From Bacteroidales bacterium (GTDB lineage Bacteria > Bacteroidota > Bacteroidia > Bacteroidales > VadinHA17): 64,000 nucleotides of DNA. The stretch is from the NCBI GenBank assembly GCA_963676175.2, contig CAXXWV010000002.1, forward strand, positions 132,081 to 196,080, given 5' to 3'. The position numbers were made by a program, and so were the translations under genes. The notes under the pieces were generated by a model, which worked only from the letters and a program-made list of their open reading frames with translations, was not told the DNA's origin and did not search any database. Each line of letters opens with the position of its first letter. Within the stretch, counting starts at the first letter, position 1. Shown here in pieces: positions 1-12,010 of the stretch.

Positions 1-513
1 GATGCCAATAAACATTATGCCGGCACTTCAGCTATTTCATTAAGCACCACTGACAGCAGGGAAGAAATAATGGAGAAGATATTTGCTTCAGCAGGAGAAT
101 CTGAATTGGCAAAACTGGCTCTTTATATTTTTCGGCAGATGGACAGGATCGACTGGAGACCCTTTATCAAGGCAGCCATTGAAAGAAATCCTGTATGTTT
201 CGGCGATCTGGGAAATAAGGAGCCGGATGAAGTTTACCCGGTACTGCTTAACCTTGATAATGAATCTATCTACAATGGTTTCAGGCTTGCACTGCCTGAT
301 GAGGTATGGAACTTCAGACGCGGAGACGGAATTGAGAAGGCATTACTAATGGCTGACCTGCTTGTTAAAAGAAACAGCGACACCGGAATCACGCTTAAAA
401 TTGCCGGCAGCAATGTTTTGCTTTCAGTTGGAAGTACAAGCTATGAATTCTCTTCGGAAAAGAATCTTACAAAGACAATCATTATCAAGGGAAATTCATA
501 TGTTATTGACTAG
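1..513 (+). CDS. hypothetical protein, 3' part (open to left window edge)
   Basis: Frame 1 is open from nt 1 (DANKHYAGTS...) through the listed 70..513 ORF to TAG at 511-513. No family recognised by eye. Confidence 0.6.
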   Translation, partial: DANKHYAGTSAISLSTTDSREEIMEKIFASAGESELAKLALYIFRQMDRIDWRPFIKAAIERNPVCFGDLGNKEPDEVYPVLLNLDNESIYNGFRLALPDEVWNFRRGDGIEKALLMADLLVKRNSDTGITLKIAGSNVLLSVGSTSYEFSSEKNLTKTIIIKGNSYVID

Positions 514-525
514 ACTAAACTAAAG

Positions 526-816
526 TCAGCGAAGAACGATATCTTTAATCAGCTCTTTTCCTGCTCTGCTGTTCAGTTTTTCCCTGAGAGCCTCTCGGAG
601 CATAAGAAGTTCATTCCTGACCACGGAGGAATTAAGATATACATACAGGACGTGATCCTTTATGTATATCTTTTTAGTTTTGGAGCTTATAGCCTTACCG
701 ACTATCTCCTCCCATGAATTCACGATGGAGGTCTCACTAAGCTTGTCTCCGAAATTCATTTCACGGATGTAATCACCAATAGCTTCAGCCAGGGATACTG
801 TTTTACTGCGTCTCAT
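526..816 (-). CDS. DUF721-type small protein (recF-associated)
   Basis: 96 aa. It lies directly downstream of recF, and its ATG overlaps the recF stop by 1 nt (TAATG). Size and position match the DUF721 proteins that follow recF in many bacteria. Confidence 0.75.
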   Translation of the reverse strand: MRRSKTVSLAEAIGDYIREMNFGDKLSETSIVNSWEEIVGKAISSKTKKIYIKDHVLYVYLNSSVVRNELLMLREALREKLNSRAGKELIKDIVLR

Positions 817-1940
817 TATTCCTCACTTTTTTTCCCTGTCACATCTGCAATAGTACCGTCGGAGATCCTGAAGAGCCTGAAATCTATGTTATGAGAAGAA
901 AGAATATCAAGCAACCGGTTCTGATGCGTGTCGGTTATAAATATCTGTCCGAACCTGTGATTACTTACGAGCTTGATTATCTGCTCGACACGATCTCCGT
1001 CGAACTTATCAAAAATATCGTCAAGAAGCAGTATTGGAGAAAAGCCTGCCTTTCTGTTAATATAATCGAACTTGGCAAGCTTAAGTGCAACAAGATAGGA
1101 TTTCTGCTGGCCCTGTGACCCCAGCGCTCTGACGGGATAACCATCCATTTCCAGAAGAAGATCATCCTTGTGTATTCCAGTGGTCGTATATTCAAGTATT
1201 CTGTCTTTTGGCAACGATTGAATAAGCAAATCCTGATAACTTCCCCCTGAAAGATGAGAGCTATATGTAAGCCTCACTTTTTCACGTCCCCCGGAAATCA
1301 TTCCGTAATACTCCTGAAAGACAGGTATCAGTTCATCCACAAGGTTCTGCCTCTCACTGTAAATGTATTCACCATAACGCACCAGCTGATCATTCCAGAT
1401 AGAGATCATCTCATCATCTTTATTTCCCGATGAATTCTGATCCTTGAGAAGTCTGTTCCGCTGCTGAAGGGCTTTGCCATAACGTAAGGCAGCATCAAGA
1501 TACCCGCCGTTATACTGACTTATTATCTTGTTCATGAATTTTCTCCGGTCCTCGCTTCCCTCAGTAATAAGCGAACTGTCGGCCGGCGAAATCATGACAA
1601 CAGGATAGCGGCCTACATGGTCAGATAATTTCTGATATTCCTTCCCGTTCCTTTTAAGTATCTTCTGTTTCTGCTTTTGAAAAGCACAGCAAATATTATC
1701 ATCCTCTTCATCGCGGCTGAATATTCCCTGTATTATAAAATATTCCTCGCCATGTCTGATACTGATGCTGTCGACGGAATTAAAGAAGCTTTTTGTAAGC
1801 GACAGATAATGAATGGCATCCAATATATTGGTCTTCCCTACCCCATTATTCCCTACAAAGCAGTTTACTTTAGACGAAAACTCCATTTCTCCAAGTTCGT
1901 AGTTCTTGAAATTCGTCAGGGTAAGTTTTTTAAGATACAT
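816..1940 (-). CDS. recF: DNA replication/repair protein RecF
   Basis: Has Walker A GNNGVGKTN, signature SQGQQKSYLVALKLA and Walker B LLLDDIFDKFD. I start at MYLKKLTLTNFKN (ATG at 1938-1940) rather than the ORF-track 2081, because the extension is hydrophobic junk running over the promoter and the IS stub. Confidence 0.93.
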   Translation of the reverse strand: MYLKKLTLTNFKNYELGEMEFSSKVNCFVGNNGVGKTNILDAIHYLSLTKSFFNSVDSISIRHGEEYFIIQGIFSRDEEDDNICCAFQKQKQKILKRNGKEYQKLSDHVGRYPVVMISPADSSLITEGSEDRRKFMNKIISQYNGGYLDAALRYGKALQQRNRLLKDQNSSGNKDDEMISIWNDQLVRYGEYIYSERQNLVDELIPVFQEYYGMISGGREKVRLTYSSHLSGGSYQDLLIQSLPKDRILEYTTTGIHKDDLLLEMDGYPVRALGSQGQQKSYLVALKLAKFDYINRKAGFSPILLLDDIFDKFDGDRVEQIIKLVSNHRFGQIFITDTHQNRLLDILSSHNIDFRLFRISDGTIADVTGKKSEE

Positions 1941-1955
1941 TGTTGCTGAGAAAGA

Positions 1956-1963
1956 CAAAAGTA
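1956..1963 (-). promoter_or_regulatory. candidate Bacteroidota -7 promoter box (TACTTTTG) for recF
   Basis: The minus strand reads TACTTTTG 15 nt upstream of the recF ATG and matches the TAnnTTTG consensus. Confidence 0.45.
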
Positions 1964-2028
1964 AAAAGCAAATGTAGAAAGTAAAAAGTGAAAAGTGAAT
2001 ACTCAGCCAGGTAAAATAGTAATAATAA

Positions 2029-2326
2029 GCTTTTGAAGATGGACGGTTTAATATTGACAATAACCTTATTGAAAACAGCATACGTCCCGTAGCTCTGGGA
2101 AGAAAGAATTATCTCTTTGCAGGATCACATGAGGCAGCACAGCACGGAGCAGTAATCTATTCGCTGCTTGCCACCTGCCAGATCAGAGGAGTGGATCCAT
2201 TTACATGGTTAAAGAACGCTCTGAAAACTATCCCGGATTACCCGGCAAACCAGTTGGAAAAATTACTCCCCAATAAATAATATCAAAATCCAGTCACTTC
2301 AAAGGTGTATTTCCCCAGTCGGATAC
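2029..2326 (+). mobile_element. IS66-family transposase C-terminal remnant (5'-truncated pseudogene, possibly with the right end of the IS)
   Basis: Frame open 2029-2280 translates AFEDGRFNIDNNLIENSIRPVALGRKNYLFAGSHEAAQHGAVIYSLLATCQIRGVDPFTWLKNALKTIPDYPANQLEKLLPNK*. This is the hallmark IS66 C-terminal block (DG..IDNN..EN.IRP.ALGRKN.LFAGS...). There is no start codon and no upstream transposase body. The end at about 2326 is a guess at the IS terminus. Confidence 0.8.
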
Positions 2327-2346
2327 AATTGAATAGGTAGTTAAGA

Positions 2347-2889
2347 TTAATAGGTTGGTTCATATTCTAGAATTTCTATTATCTCTTCATTAGGCGTGGT
2401 TTCTTTTATAGCATTTATAATCTTTTCTCTGGTTTTCTCAGTTAGTTTTGGCGTATATTTAATATTTAAACAACTGGATTCTTGCTTGTCTTTAAGGTTC
2501 GAAAAAGCATTTATGATATTATAATCCAGCTCAAGTGAGTTATCTTTTAACACTTTGTTTGAGTAATACTTTAAATAGCTTGAGGTGAGGAAAAGGTTTA
2601 TAATCGATTTTTGTTTATTCATTCTGTAAAGTTCATATTCTAACTCTGCTATTTTCAAATCAACTAAATTAGATTTTTCCAATATTACTTTAATATCTAC
2701 TTTACTAGGCATAGCGATAAGATCCTTCTTTAAAGAGTTGATCCCTTTCTTCTGACGCCATTTAAAAATACTAAGATTGGTTGGTATTTCAATAAAAAGA
2801 TAAGTAAATAAACTTCTCAATCCTTTAAAGATTAGATATATGAATAACCAGCTAAATGACAGTACTATTAATAGGAGTAAATCTTTCAT
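2347..2889 (-). CDS. hypothetical N-terminally membrane-anchored protein (island operon gene 4)
   Basis: 180 aa. Has a hydrophobic N-terminus (LLLLIVLSFSWLFIYLIF) followed by a K/E/N-rich soluble part. It sits 1 nt after the upstream gene and is very AT-rich. No family recognised. Confidence 0.7.
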   Translation of the reverse strand: MKDLLLLIVLSFSWLFIYLIFKGLRSLFTYLFIEIPTNLSIFKWRQKKGINSLKKDLIAMPSKVDIKVILEKSNLVDLKIAELEYELYRMNKQKSIINLFLTSSYLKYYSNKVLKDNSLELDYNIINAFSNLKDKQESSCLNIKYTPKLTEKTREKIINAIKETTPNEEIIEILEYEPTY

Positions 2890-2890
2890 T

Positions 2891-3322
2891 TTAAAAACGA
2901 TTATAGCTTAATACTAGAGAACCAAAACTTAAAAAATAACTAAACGTAATATTGAAGAATAATCTTCTATCGCTCAGTGGAGTTTTTTCTGTTCTCTTTC
3001 TACGTTTGATAAAGGACCCATAAAGGATCCCTAAACTAAAAGTAACCAAAATCAAGCACAAAAACCATAATATAAAAAAAACAAACGAAATTGGATTTGG
3101 AGAAATAAGGACTTTACTAATACAATATGCAATGGTAATAAAGGCAACGTCTATGCTATACCAGGAAAAAATCTCCCAATAATCGTTTGTTATTTCAATC
3201 AGATTTCTAATAAAGGTTTTAATACAAAATTTAAATACTAAGTAGACTAAAGGAGCGATAATTATAAAATTCTGTTCTAATATCTTTACACTTTGATCAA
3301 GTGTTAAAATGAAAGTACTCAT
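2891..3322 (-). CDS. hypothetical small polytopic membrane protein, about 4 TM (island operon gene 3)
   Basis: 143 aa with four hydrophobic stretches and a basic loop, KRRKRTEK. It sits 13 nt downstream of the receiver gene. No family recognised. Confidence 0.7.
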   Translation of the reverse strand: MSTFILTLDQSVKILEQNFIIIAPLVYLVFKFCIKTFIRNLIEITNDYWEIFSWYSIDVAFITIAYCISKVLISPNPISFVFFILWFLCLILVTFSLGILYGSFIKRRKRTEKTPLSDRRLFFNITFSYFLSFGSLVLSYNRF

Positions 3323-3335
3323 AATTGTTTTATTA

Positions 3336-3746
3336 CTATTGAAATATAGATTTAATTTTTAGTATTAGATCGTCAGTAGAGGAACTCTTATCTATGAAAT
3401 CAGCAACTTTATAAGTTTCAAGAAACCTTGAAACAAGGTTATCTTTCTTTAATATGCTTACGATTATGATTGGGATTTTATTGTCAATTTTACGTATTTC
3501 TTTAATTACAGCAGCTCCAGTTAGGGAGCCTCCATTGGTTTCTTCTTTGTTAAATTCATCACGAGGGGGCATTATTAGATCAACAATCACTAAATCAATA
3601 TCTTTAATTAATGAGTCTAATCTATATTTTATGTTAACAATGCTAAATTCAGGTTTTATACTAATACCATTGTCTTCTAAAATCTCAAATTTAGACCTCA
3701 TCTTTTCAGTATTAGCTTCATCATCAATGTATAAGGTTCTTATCAT
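3336..3746 (-). CDS. stand-alone response-regulator receiver (REC) protein
   Basis: 136 aa. Has the acidic pair YIDDE (D8/D9), a phospho-acceptor context DLVIVDLIMP (D56), IIIVS (S97) and FIDK (K120). There is no output domain. Confidence 0.85.
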   Translation of the reverse strand: MIRTLYIDDEANTEKMRSKFEILEDNGISIKPEFSIVNIKYRLDSLIKDIDLVIVDLIMPPRDEFNKEETNGGSLTGAAVIKEIRKIDNKIPIIIVSILKKDNLVSRFLETYKVADFIDKSSSTDDLILKIKSIFQ

Positions 3747-3752
3747 GACTTT

Positions 3753-6080
3753 TCAAATTAATTTTTTTGGTAATTCAAAATAAATTCTCGTAGGCTTTCT
3801 TAATTTCTCGATGAAAATCTTCCCCCTATGCTTCTCGATAATATTCTTACAGTATGCAAGACCAATGCCTGTTCCCTCTGGGAAAAATTTTGTAGCGTCA
3901 CTTCCTCTAGTAAATTTATTAAAAATAATATTTTCCTCCCCACTTTTTATACCAATTCCATTATCCTCAAGTATGAATTGAATTTTATCAGATTTGTCAA
4001 CTGCTGATATTTTAATATAATTTAATGGTTCATTGTCATCTTTATATTTAATCGAATTTCTTATTAAATTATAAAATACTCTCATTAAATGTAACTGATC
4101 CCCATTGAATTTCGAAGGGACGTCAAGATAATGTGGTAACGTAAAAATGATATTATGCCTCTCAAATTCATGCTTGAAAAAATATTCACATTTCCTTACT
4201 AATTCGAGAAAATTGAACTGTTGATTAATAGTTACTATTTTATCTAAATTATCCATACTATAAACTAGAACTTCGATCAACTTAATATTTTGTTCAATGT
4301 CGTCAAATTTAATTCCAATTTTACCTACATTCCAATTTTCTGGTTTATTGTTTTTAAGGTGATGTTTAAACCACTCTGAATGGTTCCTAATACCCTCTAC
4401 TGGGGAAAGTATTTCATGACGTAAAGAATAGATGTTCCTTTCCCTATCTTCCAGAATATTTTTTACCAACTTGACCTTTAATGTAACATTTGACACTACT
4501 TTACTAATATTTTCAAGTTTTATTATGTCATCATTAGTAAATCTATCAAACTGAAATCCTATTCTATTCGCTTTATTATTGCATCTTACTAGCCCAATTA
4601 CTTCTCCCTTTTCGCTTTTGAGAGGCACAAATATTATAGACTTAGATTTCTTATTTCCAATTATTTCACTAAACTTGTTTGCATGAATTTTTTCAAATTC
4701 TACGTTATAATCATCATAATAAATAAAAGATTTACATTTTTGAAATACATAGCCAGTAAGTCCTTCCCCAAGTTTATATCGGACTGTACTGTATTCATGA
4801 TTGCCTATTATACCTGTCGTGCCATAAAGAACAAGCTCAGAATTATTATCCTTTAAGAAAACAGAACACCCATCACTATTCATTATAGTTTTAACCAACT
4901 CAGCCATAGAGTTCCAAGAATTTCTTTCATCTTCAAATGTCATTAAATTTGAAAATATTTGATCGTATTCCTTTAAGAAATTCTGAATATTATCGAGGTT
5001 CCAGGACTTATGAATAATTTCAAATAACTTAAAATATGAACCTATTTCGTTTATTTTGAGATTGTTGTGAGCAAGTTCGGTTTTTTCAACTTCTCCATAA
5101 GTTTCAAATGGGGTATAATAGATTATTCCAATAAATTTTCCATCACTAAAAATTGGATAACTAATGAACCACTCGATGGAAAATTTATTAAAGAATTTTT
5201 TATGAGGAAAGTTCTCCAATTTATTTAGATTGCAGTAGATATGGGGTTGTTGACTTTCAAATACTTCCTTATCAAAACTATCGGATATTCTAATAATTTG
5301 ATTATCAAAGTCAGTTAAACTTACAGTACGGTTATCAACCTTCAATGGGTATAGAGACTTAAGTATAAGAACATCATCACTTTCAATTTCCGTATTCAAC
5401 CATAGACATAAAAATTTTATTCCAAAAACTTCATTAATCAAGTTAAAAAAATGATCAATAGTCTCATCGCATCCTACATCCATTTTTTCAGTTAAGTTTG
5501 AAATAAATTGCAGCCTCTTTTCACGATTTATATTTTCAAAATAATTTTGAGTAAAATATCTGAAGAGCTTCCCTAGGATCAGAAAAATGTTTCTTTCTGA
5601 ATTTACAATCTTCTGATTGAAATCAATTATTATGATACCAACGATGTCATTCAAGAATAAAATTGGAATAATTACCTCTGACTTTATTTTATCGTCAATA
5701 TTAATAAAGACACCATTTTTTTCTGAGTCTCTTGCTGAATTTATGATAACGATATCTTTCAATTGATATGCCTGCCCTATTGCACCATCACTTATATTTC
5801 GAGAGATTATTCTAACTTTTTTGGGCGAGGTATAATCCTTTGGTAAAACGAGGTCAATTTTAAATTCGTGAGTATCTTTTACATATTCATAATACCTACA
5901 CAAATATGGATTGAAGTGCTTATATATTAAAGCTACAAGTTGTTCAGGAAAGTTGTGGAGCGGTTGAGCAGCATAAAGACTCTCAAGCGATTTATTCATA
6001 TTTTCTAAAGAAATTGAAAATGAAACAAGTTTTTCACTTAAAGTTTTCGAACTTCTATCTCCGATATTAAAAAAACTCAT
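3753..6080 (-). CDS. soluble sensor histidine kinase with three GAF-like modules
   Basis: 775 aa with no TM segments. GAF-like motifs include DGAIGQAY and LGEGLTGYV. The H-box is SLRHEILSPVEGI (His555, codon 4416-4418), the N-box LIRNSIKY, the G1 box EDNGIGI and the G2 box GTGIGLAYCKNIIEKHRG. Confidence 0.88.
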   Translation of the reverse strand: MSFFNIGDRSSKTLSEKLVSFSISLENMNKSLESLYAAQPLHNFPEQLVALIYKHFNPYLCRYYEYVKDTHEFKIDLVLPKDYTSPKKVRIISRNISDGAIGQAYQLKDIVIINSARDSEKNGVFINIDDKIKSEVIIPILFLNDIVGIIIIDFNQKIVNSERNIFLILGKLFRYFTQNYFENINREKRLQFISNLTEKMDVGCDETIDHFFNLINEVFGIKFLCLWLNTEIESDDVLILKSLYPLKVDNRTVSLTDFDNQIIRISDSFDKEVFESQQPHIYCNLNKLENFPHKKFFNKFSIEWFISYPIFSDGKFIGIIYYTPFETYGEVEKTELAHNNLKINEIGSYFKLFEIIHKSWNLDNIQNFLKEYDQIFSNLMTFEDERNSWNSMAELVKTIMNSDGCSVFLKDNNSELVLYGTTGIIGNHEYSTVRYKLGEGLTGYVFQKCKSFIYYDDYNVEFEKIHANKFSEIIGNKKSKSIIFVPLKSEKGEVIGLVRCNNKANRIGFQFDRFTNDDIIKLENISKVVSNVTLKVKLVKNILEDRERNIYSLRHEILSPVEGIRNHSEWFKHHLKNNKPENWNVGKIGIKFDDIEQNIKLIEVLVYSMDNLDKIVTINQQFNFLELVRKCEYFFKHEFERHNIIFTLPHYLDVPSKFNGDQLHLMRVFYNLIRNSIKYKDDNEPLNYIKISAVDKSDKIQFILEDNGIGIKSGEENIIFNKFTRGSDATKFFPEGTGIGLAYCKNIIEKHRGKIFIEKLRKPTRIYFELPKKLI

Positions 6081-6812
6081 TTTTTGAAATTTTTATAGAT
6101 AAAATGAATTCGTAAGGATTATAAGAATTGTATTCCTTTTGAAAAATTCATTCTAATATTATACCCAATGATTGAAGTTTTAATTAAAGCAATTTATATA
6201 TGTCCTTTTTAAATATCCATTCTTAAATTAAGAATAAACCATTATATCAATGAGTAACTAAAAGTAATTAAGTTAGTTCTTCAATATCTGTTCATTTTGA
6301 GCAAGTTATTTTTCCTCAATTGGTATAAGTATAGTTTTGTAGTCAATTACATGACCATCTTATACATCTTCTTATCAAACATTAGCCTAATAAAATTAAA
6401 CTATATTTTTTATTTTGCAAAACTTTGTTTCAGTACGTCTCACCATATAAACCAAGGTGCACTCAACTACTCTTTTCAAAGACTTTGACTGAAGCCATTC
6501 TACATTTAAATCCCCATATAATTGAACAATGGGTCATACAAGTTGATTTTATTCTTAGCCTAAGCAACCCACCCAATAAGCTCATTCGACAGTCTATTCT
6601 CTTCTATTGTTAATCCTAACTGTTTTGAAAGGGTGTAAAATGGCACGAACCAGATCATCATATAAAGCTCTTGTCGAGTTAAGACAGTTCTTTCCATTTT
6701 GATAGTATTAATGTTCTATAATACTGGAGTTTCCTTAAAATTTAGTATAAAAATTCTGATGGGCTGATATAATGCGAGATTAAGAACTTTTATAAGTGAA
6801 ACCCAAACAAAA

Positions 6813-7727
6813 ATCGAGTTTCCTCAAAAAAATGCGTCCAAACAACGAACCTGGCATTTGACTAAAATATCAAAACTCAAATGGACGCAAATTCTTTATT
6901 AATGAACCGGTTCAGGATGCAAAATAATAAATTTTCAGGAACTATTTCAAGAAGTCTTGGCAAAGTTAAAAAACGATTGGTTTAAGAGATGATTTATCGG
7001 ATACAGGCATCAAAAGACGTTAAGCTTTCAAATATAAGGCGAGCATTAATGGAATCTGTTCCACTGATAAAGACTGAAGACAGGCTAAGTCGCAATTTGG
7101 GTGACGAGGATCTGACCTCCACGATTAATAATAATATCCTGCGACTGGCCGATGACAAGGTTGATGAAACGATGGTTATAGCTATTGATCCGGGCGACAT
7201 GATGAAACCATACGCGAAGGTGATGGAAAATTTGTGCAACATCTATGATGGTAGCAGCCACAACCAGGCAAGAGGTTATCATCTGTGCCAGGTAACAGCG
7301 GCGAATCAAGCTCACGACAGAATAGTGCCATTGTATTGCGAGGCATATTCAACAGAAACTGAAGATTACCCAGGGAGTACTGAAAAACTCATTGAGATTA
7401 TCAGAAAAGTCAAAGCATATACTGGTGCCACAGGCACTTAGGCAATTGACAGGCAAGGTGATGATACATGCATAGCTTATTTTACAAGTATATATCTGGG
7501 AATGTCTTTAAAACTGAAGATCTTGGTTCAAAAAATTTTCATCCTCTCGAAAAGATTTTTTGGAGTACCCTCATTTTATAACTATGCAATGGCTGATGGT
7601 ATCTTTGAACTTATAAAACACTCGAAACGGGGATTATCTGAATTCAGAGGTAGAATTGGACCCCATCATGACAGGTTCCAGCTATCTTTATTCCCAGACT
7701 AACCATTTTTTGAGGAAACTCCAGGAA
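6813..7727 (+). mobile_element. degenerate, internally deleted IS element with terminal inverted repeats
   Basis: The left end atcgagtttcctcaaaaaaatg (6813-6834) matches the reverse complement of the right end cattttttgaggaaactccag (7705-7727), with about 2 mismatches and 1 indel. It encloses a broken transposase ORF. At about 0.9 kb it is too short for an intact IS. Confidence 0.7.
6881..7702 (+). pseudogene. DDE transposase pseudogene (IS4/IS1634-like; family uncertain)
   Basis: One reading frame is interrupted by TAA (6983-6985) and TAG (7439-7441, where a Trp is expected: GT*AIDRQGDD). It contains VIAIDPGDMMKPYAKVMENL (first D region) and a C-terminal GIFELIKHSKRGLSEF (E/K region). The middle of the protein is missing. 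Confidence 0.7.
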
Positions 7728-7784
7728 TTTCATCATTCAACCCATAATCATTAAATAATTGTTTTAAAATTACTTGAAAAAAAT

Positions 7785-7792
7785 TACTTTTG
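7785..7792 (+). promoter_or_regulatory. candidate -7 promoter box (TACTTTTG) for the TPR-ribH genes
   Basis: TAnnTTTG match 37 nt upstream of the ATG at 7830. Confidence 0.45.
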
Positions 7793-7829
7793 CGGTGGAA
7801 AATTTTGAAGATAAAAAGTATTTACCAGT

Positions 7830-8516
7830 ATGGCTAAGAAGACTAAGGACGCAAATCCACAGACCATTTCGAACGTTGAGCAGACTCTGACCAGAACAGA
7901 GCAATATCTTGAGGAAAACTACAAGACATTACTGACCGGACTGGCAGTGATTGTTGTATTGGTTGGACTTGGATGGCTTGGAAAATTATATCTGAATAAA
8001 AGGAATGATGAGGCTCAGGCACAGATGTACCAGGCTGAAAAGTACCTTGAAATGGATTCCATCAAGCTGGCTCTCAACGGTGACGGCAACTATCTTGGAT
8101 TTTTGGATATCGCGAAAAGCTACAAGCTTACAAAGGCAGGCAACCTTGCCCGTTACAGTGCAGGCATATGTTACCTTCATCTTGGCCAGTATCAGGATGC
8201 AATAGAATATCTTAACAAGTATTCCAAAAAAGACCAGGTGATAGGTTCTCTGGCTATTGGCGCGACAGGCGACGCCTATATTGAACTGGGTCAGACTGAC
8301 AAGGGCATAGCAAAATATATTGAAGCCGCCGATTATGCAAAGAATTCATTCAACACACCTCTGTTTCTGATGAAAGCCGGCCAGATATACGAGCTTAACG
8401 GGAAATATTCTGATGCTTTAAAAGTATATGAGAGGATTGAAAGCGAGTATCCTGAAAGTACAGAAGGAGCAGTAATTGAAAAATATATCACAAGGATCAA
8501 ACTTCTGATCAAATAA
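7830..8516 (+). CDS. membrane-anchored tetratricopeptide-repeat protein
   Basis: 228 aa. Has one TM (LLTGLAVIVVLVGLGWL) followed by TPR-like helices (YSAGICYLHLGQYQDAIEYL...). It lies immediately upstream of ribH. Confidence 0.8.
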   Translation: MAKKTKDANPQTISNVEQTLTRTEQYLEENYKTLLTGLAVIVVLVGLGWLGKLYLNKRNDEAQAQMYQAEKYLEMDSIKLALNGDGNYLGFLDIAKSYKLTKAGNLARYSAGICYLHLGQYQDAIEYLNKYSKKDQVIGSLAIGATGDAYIELGQTDKGIAKYIEAADYAKNSFNTPLFLMKAGQIYELNGKYSDALKVYERIESEYPESTEGAVIEKYITRIKLLIK

Positions 8517-8525
8517 TTGCGGACC

Positions 8526-9011
8526 ATGGCAACAGCCAATCTATCCGCCTACGATCCCTCAGCGGTGCCTGATGCAGGCGATATGCGCTTTGGTATCGTG
8601 GTGTCGGACTGGAACAATGATATCACCTGGGCCCTTCTTGAAGGTGCTGTTTCAACACTCATCAAACACGGAGCTGCCCAGGAGGATATAGTAATCAAAC
8701 ATGTACCCGGTAGTTTTGAACTGACACTCGGGGCTCAGTTTCTTGCAGAATATGATGATCTTGATGCGGTGATCTGCCTGGGTTGTGTTATACAGGGTGA
8801 AACACCACATTTTACATATATCTGTCAGGGTGTGACCCAGGGTATCACGCAGCTTAACCTTGAATACAATATCCCTTTTATTTTCGGAGTTCTGACTACA
8901 AACGACCACAAGCAGGCAGCAGACAGGGCCGGAGGAATTCACGGAAACAAAGGAGATGAAGCTGCCGTAACAGCCATCAAAATGGCAGCCCTTCAGAGGG
9001 AGATGGAATGA
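8526..9011 (+). CDS. ribH: 6,7-dimethyl-8-ribityllumazine synthase
   Basis: Motifs seen are [36 protein letters not shown] and [17 protein letters not shown] at 8526 (MATANLS) is preferred over the TTG at 8517. Confidence 0.92.
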
Positions 9012-9033
9012 TCATAATAATCATTTACGGTTA

Positions 9034-11940
9034 TTATCTTGTGCAAAGTCCCCTGTAGGAACACCACGAACATTTTCCCCTGATATCAGAAGTCATTACA
9101 AATTCAGAATCCATACTGAATATTGAAGACACCGTGTTTTTTAGATTTTCAATAAATTCTACACGTATCTCATGATAATCATCAAGCTGGCGATCAGTCC
9201 TCTGGTCGGTTTTTAGTTTAAGTTTATCATTTCCCGAAATAACTGATTTTCTGACTCTGTAAACCGATGGCCGTACTTTTGCATCCGGATTTGAGATAAG
9301 ATAGGCCTCGCAGTATAGGAGAGTTTGCAGCCAGGCATCGAGGTCTTTCTTCCTGTCGTCGGTAAAAAGCTCTTCCACCGATCCGATCTTTTCAGCCACA
9401 GAACCGGTCTTATAGTCCACAATTCTTATACTCCCTTCTGCCTGGTCAATCCTGTCAACAATACCTCCAACGGTAACTTCATTTTCAATACCGTTGATAT
9501 TCACCTTCATGTCGAATTTGTACTCCGATTCCAGGGCTATGATACTAAAGGGGGCAACAGCTTTATCAGCTTTAAGGATTTTCTGAACAAAGCTTTTTAA
9601 AACTTCCCTGATTATCAGTTCGGAGCCTTCTACCCGACGGTCGGTACCTCCGCTGAATCTACTGCTGATCGAATCCTTTATGATATCCTCCAACCCGGTG
9701 CCGTTCCGAAGTATCCCGTCAATAACGTTTTCTCCCGTTACCTGTCCTCCTGTGCCGTCATAGAGCTTTTGCATTATTTCATGCAGGATAGCTCCAAGCA
9801 TGGCTGAATCTATATCTTTTGATATCTCTTCCGGTTCCTTAAGCCCGTTAACGTATCGGTAGTAAAACTTCATCCTGCAGCCCAACCATGTATTTATGGC
9901 AGATGGAGAAAGAGTTCTCCTGTTATCAGGCGATAAAAACCTCGACCGAAGACGCCTGTCATGATCTTCAGTTCTGGCGATACTCCTGGCAACCGGACCA
10001 TGTGATCTGATCTCAAAATTAAGATTCATGAATTCAGGCTTCAGGCGCTCATCATATCTCATTTGATTCAGAAACCTGCTCATTTCGCCTGTTCTGAGAC
10101 CGTCGGAATTTGAATTGTACAGAAATGTGACGTTCTCGGCTCTTTCAAGCAGTCTGTAAAAATGATATGCATATATCGACTCCTGATGATTGATTGAAGG
10201 TATCCCAAAAGCTTCCCTGAGATTGTATGGAATAAAGGAGGAACCTGTCGAAACAGACGGTAATACACCTTCATTTACAGACAGTATGATTAGGTTCCTG
10301 AAGTCAAGGGCCCGGGTCTCCAGTATTCCCATTATCTGAATACCGGATAATGGTTCACCAGAGAAGGGGACGGACTGGATCTTGAGTATTTTATCCAGGA
10401 TCTTCATATAAGTATCGGCGGAAAAAGTCACATCTGTCTGACTGACTATGGAATCAAGCCTGTTTACCGACAGTAATCCGCTGTAGATAAACTCATTTCT
10501 TATCCTTTCGTCCATTGTCCGGCCATCCGGATTATCATTTCCATGAATATTCAACGATCCGATAGTGGCAAGGATATTCCTGAAATATTCTGATAATTGA
10601 AGAGTGGTCGCTGGTTTCGAGAAAACAAGTGAAAGATATCCGGATTCCGCGAAACGATTGGCCGGGACCCAGAGCAGATTGGTAACAATGATCTCCTCTA
10701 TCAGCTCATTTTCCTTCTCCCCTGCCAGGCTTTCAGTCAGCGGATGTCTGAGTATATTAAGCACATCGCGATGATTAAACCTCACACCGGAACCTGAATG
10801 AGATGCATTGCGCTGAAGGTCCATCAGGTGTTTCAGGAAAGTATAAACCAGGGTCTGTCTCAGGGGATATCCCATGGTAATATTGATGTCCCCATTGTAT
10901 GCAGGCAGACTGGTTAACACAGGGATAAGAAGATTCTCATCTGCAAGCACTACAGCAGTATGATGAGCTGTTTCCGGATTAAGTCCGGGCAGCTGGCTAA
11001 GGAGATGAGGTAAAAGTTTTACCTGTGCCACATCGGAAGAGGTTTCAATAACTCTTCTCGGAACGCTTTCCGCCGTTGGTGAAAGAAGTGTATCGTAATT
11101 CCAGTCAGCCGGCATGTCGTTGCCGAACATCCTGATGTTGTTCCGCATGAAAAAACCAGCTGAATTCCGGGTACCCTCTTTAATGAAAGAATTATCATAG
11201 TCCCAGTAGAATTTAGCCTTCCCGGCCTTCCTGAAACCATGCATCAACTTTTTCTCACACTCATTGAGCGCATTGAACCCGATAAAATGAATCGTCTCCC
11301 AGGCAATGGATGAATAGAAATCCCCATCCATATTCTCAGCTATATCTCTGAATATCATGCCTTCATAGGCAAGTCCTTTTGATTTAAGGTTCTCTCTGAA
11401 TTCCTGATATAGATCCAGCAGAACCGACCAGATATCAGTAAAGCTGGCCTTCTGTTTTGTAGGTTTATCAGGATTAAAATTCACCCAGAATTTCCTAATC
11501 ACTTCCACCTGCAAAGTTGTCAGTTCACCGAATTGTCTGTCAATGTTTTTAAGATCCTGAACATTATTGAACAATAACCTGGCGTCAACAAGATATTTAT
11601 CTACATCGTCAAAATCATTCAGCAGCATGTCTCCCCAGAAATAGAACTCGTCGAATTTTTCAGGGATTTTTTTCACTTTGGTGTAGGTGCGGTAAAGCTC
11701 AAAGAGAAGGATTTCAGGATATGCAGTCTGCATGGAGGAGTAAGAAGAGAACAACTCATTGATGGTATAAACTGCAGGTGTCCATACCGGTTTTTGAATC
11801 ATCGATGCAAGATATCGCATGAAATATAACCCGGCTCTTCTGTTAGGAAAGACCAGACAATGCCTGTTCAGTTCATTTCCATACCTTTGATTCAGGTCTC
11901 TTGCAATATTCTGAAGGAAGTACTCCATTTTGGTTTCCAA
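9034..11940 (-). CDS. AddB-like PD-(D/E)XK nuclease family protein
   Basis: 968 aa. The C-terminal nuclease motif is VDRIDQ...IRIVDYKTG, flanked by four Cys (WLGCRMKF; CSWCSYRGLC) as in the Fe-S 'iron staple' of AddB. It is partnered by a UvrD-type helicase gene nearby. Confidence 0.8.
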   Translation of the reverse strand: METKMEYFLQNIARDLNQRYGNELNRHCLVFPNRRAGLYFMRYLASMIQKPVWTPAVYTINELFSSYSSMQTAYPEILLFELYRTYTKVKKIPEKFDEFYFWGDMLLNDFDDVDKYLVDARLLFNNVQDLKNIDRQFGELTTLQVEVIRKFWVNFNPDKPTKQKASFTDIWSVLLDLYQEFRENLKSKGLAYEGMIFRDIAENMDGDFYSSIAWETIHFIGFNALNECEKKLMHGFRKAGKAKFYWDYDNSFIKEGTRNSAGFFMRNNIRMFGNDMPADWNYDTLLSPTAESVPRRVIETSSDVAQVKLLPHLLSQLPGLNPETAHHTAVVLADENLLIPVLTSLPAYNGDINITMGYPLRQTLVYTFLKHLMDLQRNASHSGSGVRFNHRDVLNILRHPLTESLAGEKENELIEEIIVTNLLWVPANRFAESGYLSLVFSKPATTLQLSEYFRNILATIGSLNIHGNDNPDGRTMDERIRNEFIYSGLLSVNRLDSIVSQTDVTFSADTYMKILDKILKIQSVPFSGEPLSGIQIMGILETRALDFRNLIILSVNEGVLPSVSTGSSFIPYNLREAFGIPSINHQESIYAYHFYRLLERAENVTFLYNSNSDGLRTGEMSRFLNQMRYDERLKPEFMNLNFEIRSHGPVARSIARTEDHDRRLRSRFLSPDNRRTLSPSAINTWLGCRMKFYYRYVNGLKEPEEISKDIDSAMLGAILHEIMQKLYDGTGGQVTGENVIDGILRNGTGLEDIIKDSISSRFSGGTDRRVEGSELIIREVLKSFVQKILKADKAVAPFSIIALESEYKFDMKVNINGIENEVTVGGIVDRIDQAEGSIRIVDYKTGSVAEKIGSVEELFTDDRKKDLDAWLQTLLYCEAYLISNPDAKVRPSVYRVRKSVISGNDKLKLKTDQRTDRQLDDYHEIRVEFIENLKNTVSSIFSMDSEFVMTSDIRGKCSWCSYRGLCTR

Positions 11941-11980
11941 ATTTAGTGAATAGCTGTCAGCCTCCGCGTTTTAAAGTGAT

Positions 11981-11988
11981 TATATTTG
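11981..11988 (+). promoter_or_regulatory. candidate -7 promoter box (TATATTTG)
   Basis: TAnnTTTG match 22 nt upstream of the ATG at 12011. Confidence 0.4.
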
Positions 11989-12010
11989 TTGTTAAGCCAA
12001 TTATGAATAT

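Follow-up and report, generated by a model that had tools for sequence, protein, structure and literature searches.

Why does a block of strongly AT-rich DNA stand between recF and a tetratricopeptide repeat (TPR) gene in a Bacteroidales bacterium of the VadinHA17 lineage, and what might the genes within it do? The block lies near the start of a 64,000-nucleotide stretch of contig CAXXWV010000002.1 (assembly GCA_963676175.2, positions 132,081 to 196,080 of the forward strand). The whole of this stretch is referred to here as the window, and coordinates without a contig or locus name are those of the window. The block is almost certainly acquired DNA that was inserted into the divergent promoter spacer between recF-dciA and TPR-ribH. 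Its cargo is an operon of four genes coding for a sensor histidine kinase, a receiver-only protein and two membrane proteins termed C and D. This operon is very probably a self-contained mobile cassette that recurs in at least two phyla. As a genomic island the block is routine, though unusually clean. Its cargo is the more valuable part: a closed mobile phosphorelay whose sole possible outputs are two membrane proteins without a known family or fold, found in fewer than 50 clusters.

The first-pass annotation of this DNA described an AT-rich island of approximately 5.7 kb. The compositional step is real and sharp, as seen in sliding-window GC (guanine plus cytosine) content, in tetranucleotide composition and in GC at third codon positions (GC3). 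In sliding windows of 500 bp, GC is 0.41-0.43 over positions 1-1750, 0.25-0.31 over 2251-6750 and 0.40-0.48 from approximately 7000. The step exists as described, but the low GC is confined to the central 4.4 kb:

2327-6723, minus strand: AT-rich cargo; 4,397 bp, GC 0.284, single-copy in the genome

By segment, GC is 0.415 in recF, 0.430 in the stub of an IS66-family insertion sequence (IS) on the left, 0.284 in the cargo, 0.382 in the IS remnant on the right, 0.421 in the TPR gene and 0.489 in ribH. Since only the central 4.4 kb is AT-rich, both IS remnants are compositionally host-like. The cargo represents the GC minimum of 10,249 windows of 4.4 kb across the 5.16-Mb genome (mean 0.421, standard deviation 0.028; z -4.9). 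Its tetranucleotide distance from the genome mean reaches z +6.0, with 5 of 2,333 windows more deviant. GC3 is 0.23-0.28 in the four cargo genes, against 0.44-0.46 in dciA, recF, the TPR gene, ribH and an addB-like gene. Elsewhere in the same genome, other 4.4-kb windows of low GC (0.30-0.32) are located at C4:617001, C4:961001-977400, C1:161001, C4:1286501 and C5:929001, and the one at C4:961-977 kb surrounds a copy of IS66. These windows may be further acquired islands.

On either side of the block, the native genes and the two pieces of their spacer can be aligned with relatives:

526-816, minus strand: dciA (DUF721), native flank; PF05258 DciA, E 6.8e-17
816-1943, minus strand: recF, native flank; SMC_N/AAA_15 matches, start codon aligned with that of relatives
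1944-2033, no strand: native recF-proximal spacer, 90 bp; an A/G-rich AAAAG(T/A)AAAAG tract common to relatives
7725-7829, no strand: native TPR-proximal spacer, 105 bp; aligned with six relatives
7830-8516, plus strand: TPR gene, native flank; TPR families, protein 71-83% identical in the same genus
8517-9011, plus strand: ribH, native flank; PF00885, E 4e-55

The first reading took recF-DUF721 and TPR-ribH to be divergent immediate neighbours in many Bacteroidota, and this arrangement holds. recF and the TPR gene stand divergently, 190-380 bp apart, in all 16 same-genus genomes with both genes on one contig. Of 12 genomes that represent the order's other families, 6 show the same adjacency, with a spacer of 187-301 bp. 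In the source genome, the gap between the two genes is 5,886 bp. When the empty sites of six relatives are aligned with it, native DNA extends from recF to approximately 2033 and begins again at 7725, where a conserved block upstream of the TPR gene (…CATTAAATAATTGTTTTAAAATT…TTACTTTTGCGGTGG…) picks up directly. The 90 bp of native DNA upstream of recF, the length that had been predicted, and the 105 bp on the TPR side make 195 bp, inside the empty-site range. Wherever the two genes are neighbours in relatives, the site between them is empty, and no orthologue of the cargo kinase was detected in 40 relatives. Protein C, with its four transmembrane (TM) helices, was not found in a sample of 400 other genomes from across the phylum. 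The empty sites, the length of the gap and the ends of the alignment all support the proposal that the whole block is an insertion into the recF/TPR intergenic region.

Both spacer pieces have kept a Bacteroidota-type -7 box, TACTTTTG (TAnnTTTG), which a motif scan places at 1956-1963 on the minus strand next to recF and at 7785-7792 on the plus strand next to the TPR gene. For this reason, both native promoters probably survive the insertion. A housekeeping promoter spacer can thus take up 5.7 kb while both of its native promoters appear to be kept. Sixteen complete RecF matches from the same genus show 68-79% identity, with alignments that begin at residue 1 or 2. The open frame of recF runs on to 2081, 46 codons past the conserved start at 1943 and into the IS66 stump, and this extension is not conserved. 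Automatic annotation could give a 421-residue RecF with a spurious hydrophobic N-terminus.

The borders of the insert hold remnants of mobility genes from two different IS families. An IS66 stub on the left and a degenerate IS on the right had been recognised from the outset, and these identifications stand; it is the limits of both elements that required revision:

2034-2326, plus strand: IS66-family remnant; last 293 bp of a 2,293-bp element, 5′ 2.0 kb deleted, right end intact (…GTCGGATAC)
6724-7724, plus strand: dead IS701/IS4-like element, "IS-X"; intact length 1,465 bp, both terminal inverted repeats kept (CTGGAGTTTCC…)

The right element had been given a start at 6813, which is 90 bp off. 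Its true start is 6724, and the repeat near 6813 is internal. The segment 6724-6740 was also considered as a solo extra inverted repeat and rejected, as it is the true left end of IS-X and the repeat at 6816-6831 lies inside the element.

Of the IS66 element 13% is left. The stump encodes the last 83 codons of the transposase (frame 2029-2280) and matches NF033517 transpos_IS66 at E 1.6e-23 over profile positions 322-386 of 387, the C-terminal 65. Its terminal sequence (…CCCAGTCGGATAC) is that of the resident copies. Five resident copies of 2,293 bp, at C4:226704-228996, C4:453457-455749, C4:966864-969156, C4:1169458-1171750 and C5:950304-952596, are 99.5-100% identical over their full length; the stump shares 94.9% identity with them and is collinear with their right end. 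In a blastn search of the whole genome, the stump shows 92.5-94.9% identity to the resident copies; over the same segment, four of these are mutually identical and the fifth is 98.6% identical. Contig C7 holds a diverged IS66 pair and fragments (95-99 kb), with two partial matches to the stump. Beyond its IS66 end the sequence seemed to resemble the copy at C4:966,831 further, but this similarity was dismissed as weak and due to chance; no second homologue of C or D exists in the genome.

IS-X has lost 462 bp internally and differs further by two 1-bp indels, three premature stops and 53 substitutions; it is 94.7% identical to the resident copies. At least eight such copies are present in the genome, including C2:58912-60376, C5:171676-173140, C4:1163024-1164488, C4:1460797-1462261, C4:1133199-1134663 and C1:215123-216587. 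Six full-length resident copies are 99.93-100% mutually identical and have terminal inverted repeats and target duplications of 8-10 bp; judged from the sequences, this near-identity points to a very recent burst. The IS-X transposase scores 33.9 bits against IS701/IS4 models with a cut-off of 150, and has no Pfam match. As it falls below these cut-offs, the family assignment is approximate.

Target-site duplications at the outer IS ends, proposed earlier as a check on the insertion, were not found when the 8-10 bp on either side of IS-X and the outer junctions of the insert were compared. The flanks of IS-X, CTATAATA and GAATTTCA, differ from each other, and the left junction is without a repeat. 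There is no tRNA in 1-12000, no integrase open reading frame (ORF), and no att or direct repeat at the ends of the insert. A composite transposon is ruled out, since the bordering IS belong to different families, one is a 293-bp stump, and there is no duplication. We infer that the borders took their present form through later insertions of IS elements and deletions associated with them, and not through one clean transposition. A larger acquired segment would have been invaded by IS elements of the resident type. Deletions would then have shortened it at both sides, one running into IS66 and the other adjacent to IS-X.

The cargo itself consists of four intact genes, all on the minus strand, separated by gaps of 1 nt (D/C), 13 nt (C/receiver) and 6 nt (receiver/kinase), and preceded by a long leader:

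6081-6723, minus strand: AT-rich non-coding leader upstream of the kinase, 643 bp; TAnnTTTG box absent
3753-6080, minus strand: soluble sensor histidine kinase, 775 residues; GAF 393-526, H-box H555, HATPase_c 660-773 (Pfam)
3336-3746, minus strand: receiver-only protein, 136 residues; PF00072, E 5.9e-7
2891-3322, minus strand: gene C, 143 residues, approximately 4 TM helices; basic loop KRRKRTEK
2347-2889, minus strand: gene D, 180 residues; N-terminal TM helix (residues 3-21), then an all-helical cytoplasmic domain

The GAF domain of the kinase corresponds to PF13185/PF01590, with a weak GAF-like match at 92-152; no TM segment is predicted in this protein and there is no TPR match. In a nine-member alignment, H555, E556, P560, N671, N675, the DNGIG motif at 706-710 and G736/738/740 are invariant, and so is a large part of the GAF pocket. 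The receiver has D8, D9, D56, S97 and K120, all invariant among four receivers (alignment A5), and a conserved insert (…ETNGG…) after the phospho-acceptor. It has no DNA-binding or enzymatic output domain. The pair thus has what a two-component system consists of: a phospho-accepting histidine and an ATP-binding domain in the kinase, and a phospho-accepting aspartate in the receiver. From these conserved residues, the kinase and receiver are predicted to be a catalytically competent pair, co-inherited with the two membrane proteins as a mobile unit.

Protein C has five invariant residues over 11 cassette loci (D47, W49, W54, D58 and Y101), of which several lie within membrane helices (alignments A7 and A11). 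Neither C nor D belongs to a Pfam, NCBIfam or PADLOC family, and neither has a receiver domain. Their AlphaFold2 models are confident (predicted local distance difference test 89.1 for C and 88.8 for D), and a fold search against the PDB returned nothing at E<2, generic helical bundles only.

All four cargo ORFs are intact, in contrast to IS-X with its three stops, two frameshifts and deletion. This contrast fits selection on the cargo, although some of the IS divergence may have arisen before the insertion. The leader of the kinase shows no DNA conservation and no conserved small ORF when compared with the leaders of two cassettes from elsewhere (L015, L017), and Rfam gave no match over 1-9500 of the window. 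A sigma-70-like TTTTCA-16-TATAAT lies at 6145-6118 in the leader, and the promoter/terminator scan was not above shuffled expectation. This motif may reflect a non-Bacteroidota origin or chance in AT-rich DNA.

Is this combination of genes peculiar to one genome? When the sensor part of the kinase was compared with 5.8 billion proteins in a word-indexed search, only three relatives were recovered, at 49, 47 and 30% identity, the nearest (47-49%) on unrelated low-GC contigs. An exhaustive profile search of 1.84 billion representative proteins recovered 45 representative clusters of the C family, all of approximately 140 residues. The order kinase-receiver-C-D is kept in every locus covering the whole cassette (L015/L016, L017, L020, L022/L023, L025, L027, L028, L030 and L031), and homologues of D occupy the same position in 10 loci. 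Four loci fall short of the full cassette: L019 and L024 end inside the kinase gene, L026 ends in the last gene, and L018 has no called C. The kinase is approximately 760 residues long across the cassettes, the receiver approximately 138, C approximately 145 and D 167-243. In L018, a more distant cassette, there is an uncalled gap of 470 bp between the receiver and a D-like protein (L018:4898-5369); the expected C-family gene may have been missed there by the gene caller.

The hosts comprise Bacteroidota-like contigs, as judged by type IX secretion system (T9SS) cargo genes in L019 and DUF3408 in L020, and a Pyrinomonadaceae (Acidobacteriota) metagenome-assembled genome (MAG), L028. The latter was found by a contig search with the receiver alignment, which yielded one Acidobacteriota MAG. 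Four of seven metagenome loci (L033-L036) held unrelated receiver proteins and a further one (L032) had no detectable cassette gene; all five were discarded. In each of the ten loci measured, GC of the cassette is 4-13 points lower than elsewhere on the contig. Since this holds despite an absolute range of 0.235 to 0.457, a higher AT content than that of the host is characteristic of the cassette.

The genes that surround the cassette in other genomes give an indication of the company it keeps. In the Acidobacteriota locus L028 (DASVQM010000072.1, L028:1-20399), these include a Tn7-like TnsB (PADLOC 2.7e-24), TniB/AAA_22 and a TIR_2 protein. The same Tn7-like element also carries a 690-residue HEAT-repeat protein, with a Methyltransf_24 protein and DUF6065 in the cargo region, and cassette GC is approximately 0.40 there against approximately 0.51 in the remainder of the locus, where windows reach 0.59. 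L015 has rve and AAA_22 together with E1-E2/JAB (1e-30), a DrmC-like PLD protein and an LmuA-like MBL protein. In L022, a relaxase, a type IV coupling protein (T4CP) and NikA directly adjoin the cassette upstream, and SMODS, HORMA, AAA and DUF6602 follow downstream, a set like that of type III CBASS (cyclic oligonucleotide-based antiphage signalling system). L031 has MqsA and a SecB-like chaperone (a toxin-antitoxin-chaperone set) and a PD-T4-9_C match at 1e-13, and L020 has DUF3408 beside the cassette. L017 has Peptidase_M78 and aGPT-Pplase/ADDT, the latter a domain that DefensePredictor lists as predicted defensive and unvalidated (PMC13092281). Directly upstream of the L030 cassette (L030:697-7531) lie ORFs of 1,750 and 530 residues without a Pfam or PADLOC match. 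Among nine informative contexts, five contain recognised or predicted defence genes and five contain mobile-element genes. The defence-gene neighbourhoods, an uncontrolled observation, are suggestive.

What, then, would such a cassette do? By analogy with the Detocs system that is compared below, the cargo would most likely be a defensive phosphorelay with a membrane effector. In the proposed mechanism, the kinase would sense an intracellular cue via its GAF domains and autophosphorylate on H555, and the phosphate would pass from H555 to D56 of the receiver. The phosphorylated receiver, having no output domain of its own and a family-specific surface insert, would bind and switch a membrane complex of C and D. 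This complex would then collapse the integrity or the potential of the membrane, and the infected cell would be arrested. The account as a whole, comprising the acquired insertion, the mobile cassette and this defence mechanism, is favoured by a small margin over its being wrong. Taken by itself, a defence or conflict function of the cassette is quite possible, if somewhat short of an even call, and the assignment of the effector role to C and D is doubtful.

A number of results weigh against this account. Since there is neither a duplication nor an integrase nor a tRNA, the route by which the DNA arrived cannot be reconstructed from the sequence. No toxic or pore-forming fold can be recognised in C or D, which could equally be co-sensors that feed the kinase. 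As the Bacteroidota promoter box is missing upstream of the kinase, the operon may be poorly expressed in this host. PADLOC recognised only generic domains in the cargo: the ATPase domain matched PDC-M43B (1e-10) and the receiver matched PDC-M60B (2e-3). Searches of PLSDB, INPHARED and IMG/VR did not find the cassette, and gave generic matches to the kinase core and none to C. Some contexts are not defence-like, namely L019 (MacB and T9SS cargo genes), L030 (unannotated genes only) and the downstream side of L031 (ubiB-like, phasin and WS/DGAT genes), and the association with defence in five of nine contexts is a count without a statistical control.

The alternative that survives best accepts the island as acquired and regards the cassette as ordinary accessory signalling, in the service of envelope or membrane-stress or small-molecule sensing and with no role in phage defence. 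C and D would then be co-sensors or scaffolds, and the receiver would act on a host target in the manner of CheY or Spo0F. There are well-known cases of soluble or intramembrane kinases under the control of accessory proteins in the membrane. All the parts are standard for two-component systems with their catalytic residues intact, there is no known effector domain and no match to a PADLOC system, and the contexts without defence genes (L019 and the downstream side of L031) also fit. However, the four genes pass together from one phylum to another as a closed unit, and are located on Tn7-like and conjugative elements and among defence genes. The family is also extremely rare and patchy, which is unusual for a physiological regulator, and the cassette brings neither target genes nor a DNA-binding output. 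Accessory signalling is considered a possible explanation, though an unlikely one.

It has also been considered that the cassette serves the elements that carry it, through addiction and post-segregational killing, entry exclusion or transfer control, and not the immunity of the host. This would suit its position directly after a relaxase/T4CP module in L022, beside DUF3408 in L020 and within Tn7-like cargo in L028 and L015, and membrane proteins are typical of exclusion functions. The cassette has nonetheless remained intact in the window although its carrier is gone and both flanking IS are dead, which suggests that it benefits the host or maintains itself, and it has no toxin-antitoxin signature. 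A service to the carrier is improbable.

A chimeric join at a repeated IS in a metagenome-derived assembly could in principle mimic an insertion, given that the IS elements in question are multi-copy in this genome. The two remnants are, however, unique variants with approximately 5% divergence, one truncated and the other internally deleted, and not repeats that could be collapsed. The block is moreover flanked by the two halves of one native spacer, as a real insertion gives and a chimera does not. Because a single native spacer brackets the block and the bordering IS copies are unique and diverged, an artefact of assembly is very improbable. That the block is ancestral DNA lost by the relatives, with its composition set by local constraints, would draw on the fact that the nearest species representative examined is only 79% identical in RecF, and is effectively refuted by 22 empty sites, independent of one another and from several families, at which a short spacer is conserved, by the genome-wide GC minimum, outlying GC3 and tetranucleotide composition and IS ends at both borders, and by closest homologues (47-49%) on unrelated low-GC contigs and another in an Acidobacteriota MAG.

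Is the site itself of wider interest? The DciA of the window has one close cluster-mate, with 95 of 96 residues identical (99%), as against 80% or less in other species of the genus. This near-identical protein is encoded on a contig of 4,109 bp from Joint Genome Institute (JGI) sample 3300075153, on which four small co-directional genes stand directly upstream of recF-dciA. One of them codes for a SIR2_2-domain protein of 205 residues. On this contig, neither the TPR gene nor the four-gene cassette is present. An exact search with the TPR protein for other assemblies of the same species had none on record. Variation of the site between strains is suggested because the strain with the 99%-identical DciA has SIR2_2 and other genes upstream of recF; this is a hint that the recF/TPR spacer is strain-variable and takes alternative cargo of defence type in different strains.

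Taken to its full length, the reading would be of an undescribed family of defensive two-component systems that acts through a two-protein membrane effector by abortive infection, with the recF/TPR spacer as a hotspot that holds a SIR2-type system in another strain. This fuller version is put forward tentatively. Open-access papers and preprints yielded no description of a defence system made of a GAF kinase, a receiver and two TM proteins. If the cassette is defensive, it would offer a tractable four-gene system in which to study the activation of a membrane target by a single-domain receiver. Even without a defensive role, it is a very rare and unexplained signalling module, spread by transposons and conjugative elements.

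The block may be compared with several known systems. It resembles IS-bounded and defence islands at intergenic hotspots in being a compositional outlier that is absent in relatives, with IS at its borders and accessory cargo. It differs from them in having no integrase, tRNA, att or direct repeats or duplication, and in being bordered by two IS families. The cassette shares with CheY/Spo0F-type systems the H, N, G1 and G2 boxes of the kinase and the acidic pocket, Asp, Ser/Thr and Lys of the receiver. Unlike these systems, it has no chemotaxis or phosphorelay partner in the operon, and it is mobile, extremely rare and tied to two membrane proteins.

The closest comparison is with Detocs (DtcA/DtcB/DtcC; Rousset et al. 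2023), in which a phosphorelay of kinase and receiver acts as a defence (bioRxiv 10.1101/2023.01.24.525353). Detocs comprises a cytoplasmic kinase, a stand-alone "buffer" receiver and a fusion of a receiver to an effector that is sometimes transmembrane; in 80% of cases the effector is a PNP (purine nucleoside phosphorylase) (bioRxiv 10.1101/2023.01.24.525353). Both systems have a compact operon, mobile or defence contexts, a cytoplasmic kinase, a stand-alone receiver and an output that does not bind DNA. In PADLOC, no model named for Detocs matched the cassette at E<=0.1, the presence of Detocs models in its library being unverified. The sensor of DtcA is built of TPR repeats, whereas that of the cassette kinase is a GAF domain. 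Detocs has two receivers, one of them fused to the effector (DtcC; PNP, nuclease or TM), whereas the cassette has one, unfused, which resembles DtcB in form only, as a stand-alone receiver. The candidate effectors of the cassette are two separate small membrane proteins with no known fold. Some Detocs variants likewise have transmembrane effectors. If the cassette is defensive, it would extend the Detocs principle of signal transduction as immunity to a new type of sensor and to a detached membrane effector. By this comparison the cassette is not a member of Detocs, though it may still work like one.

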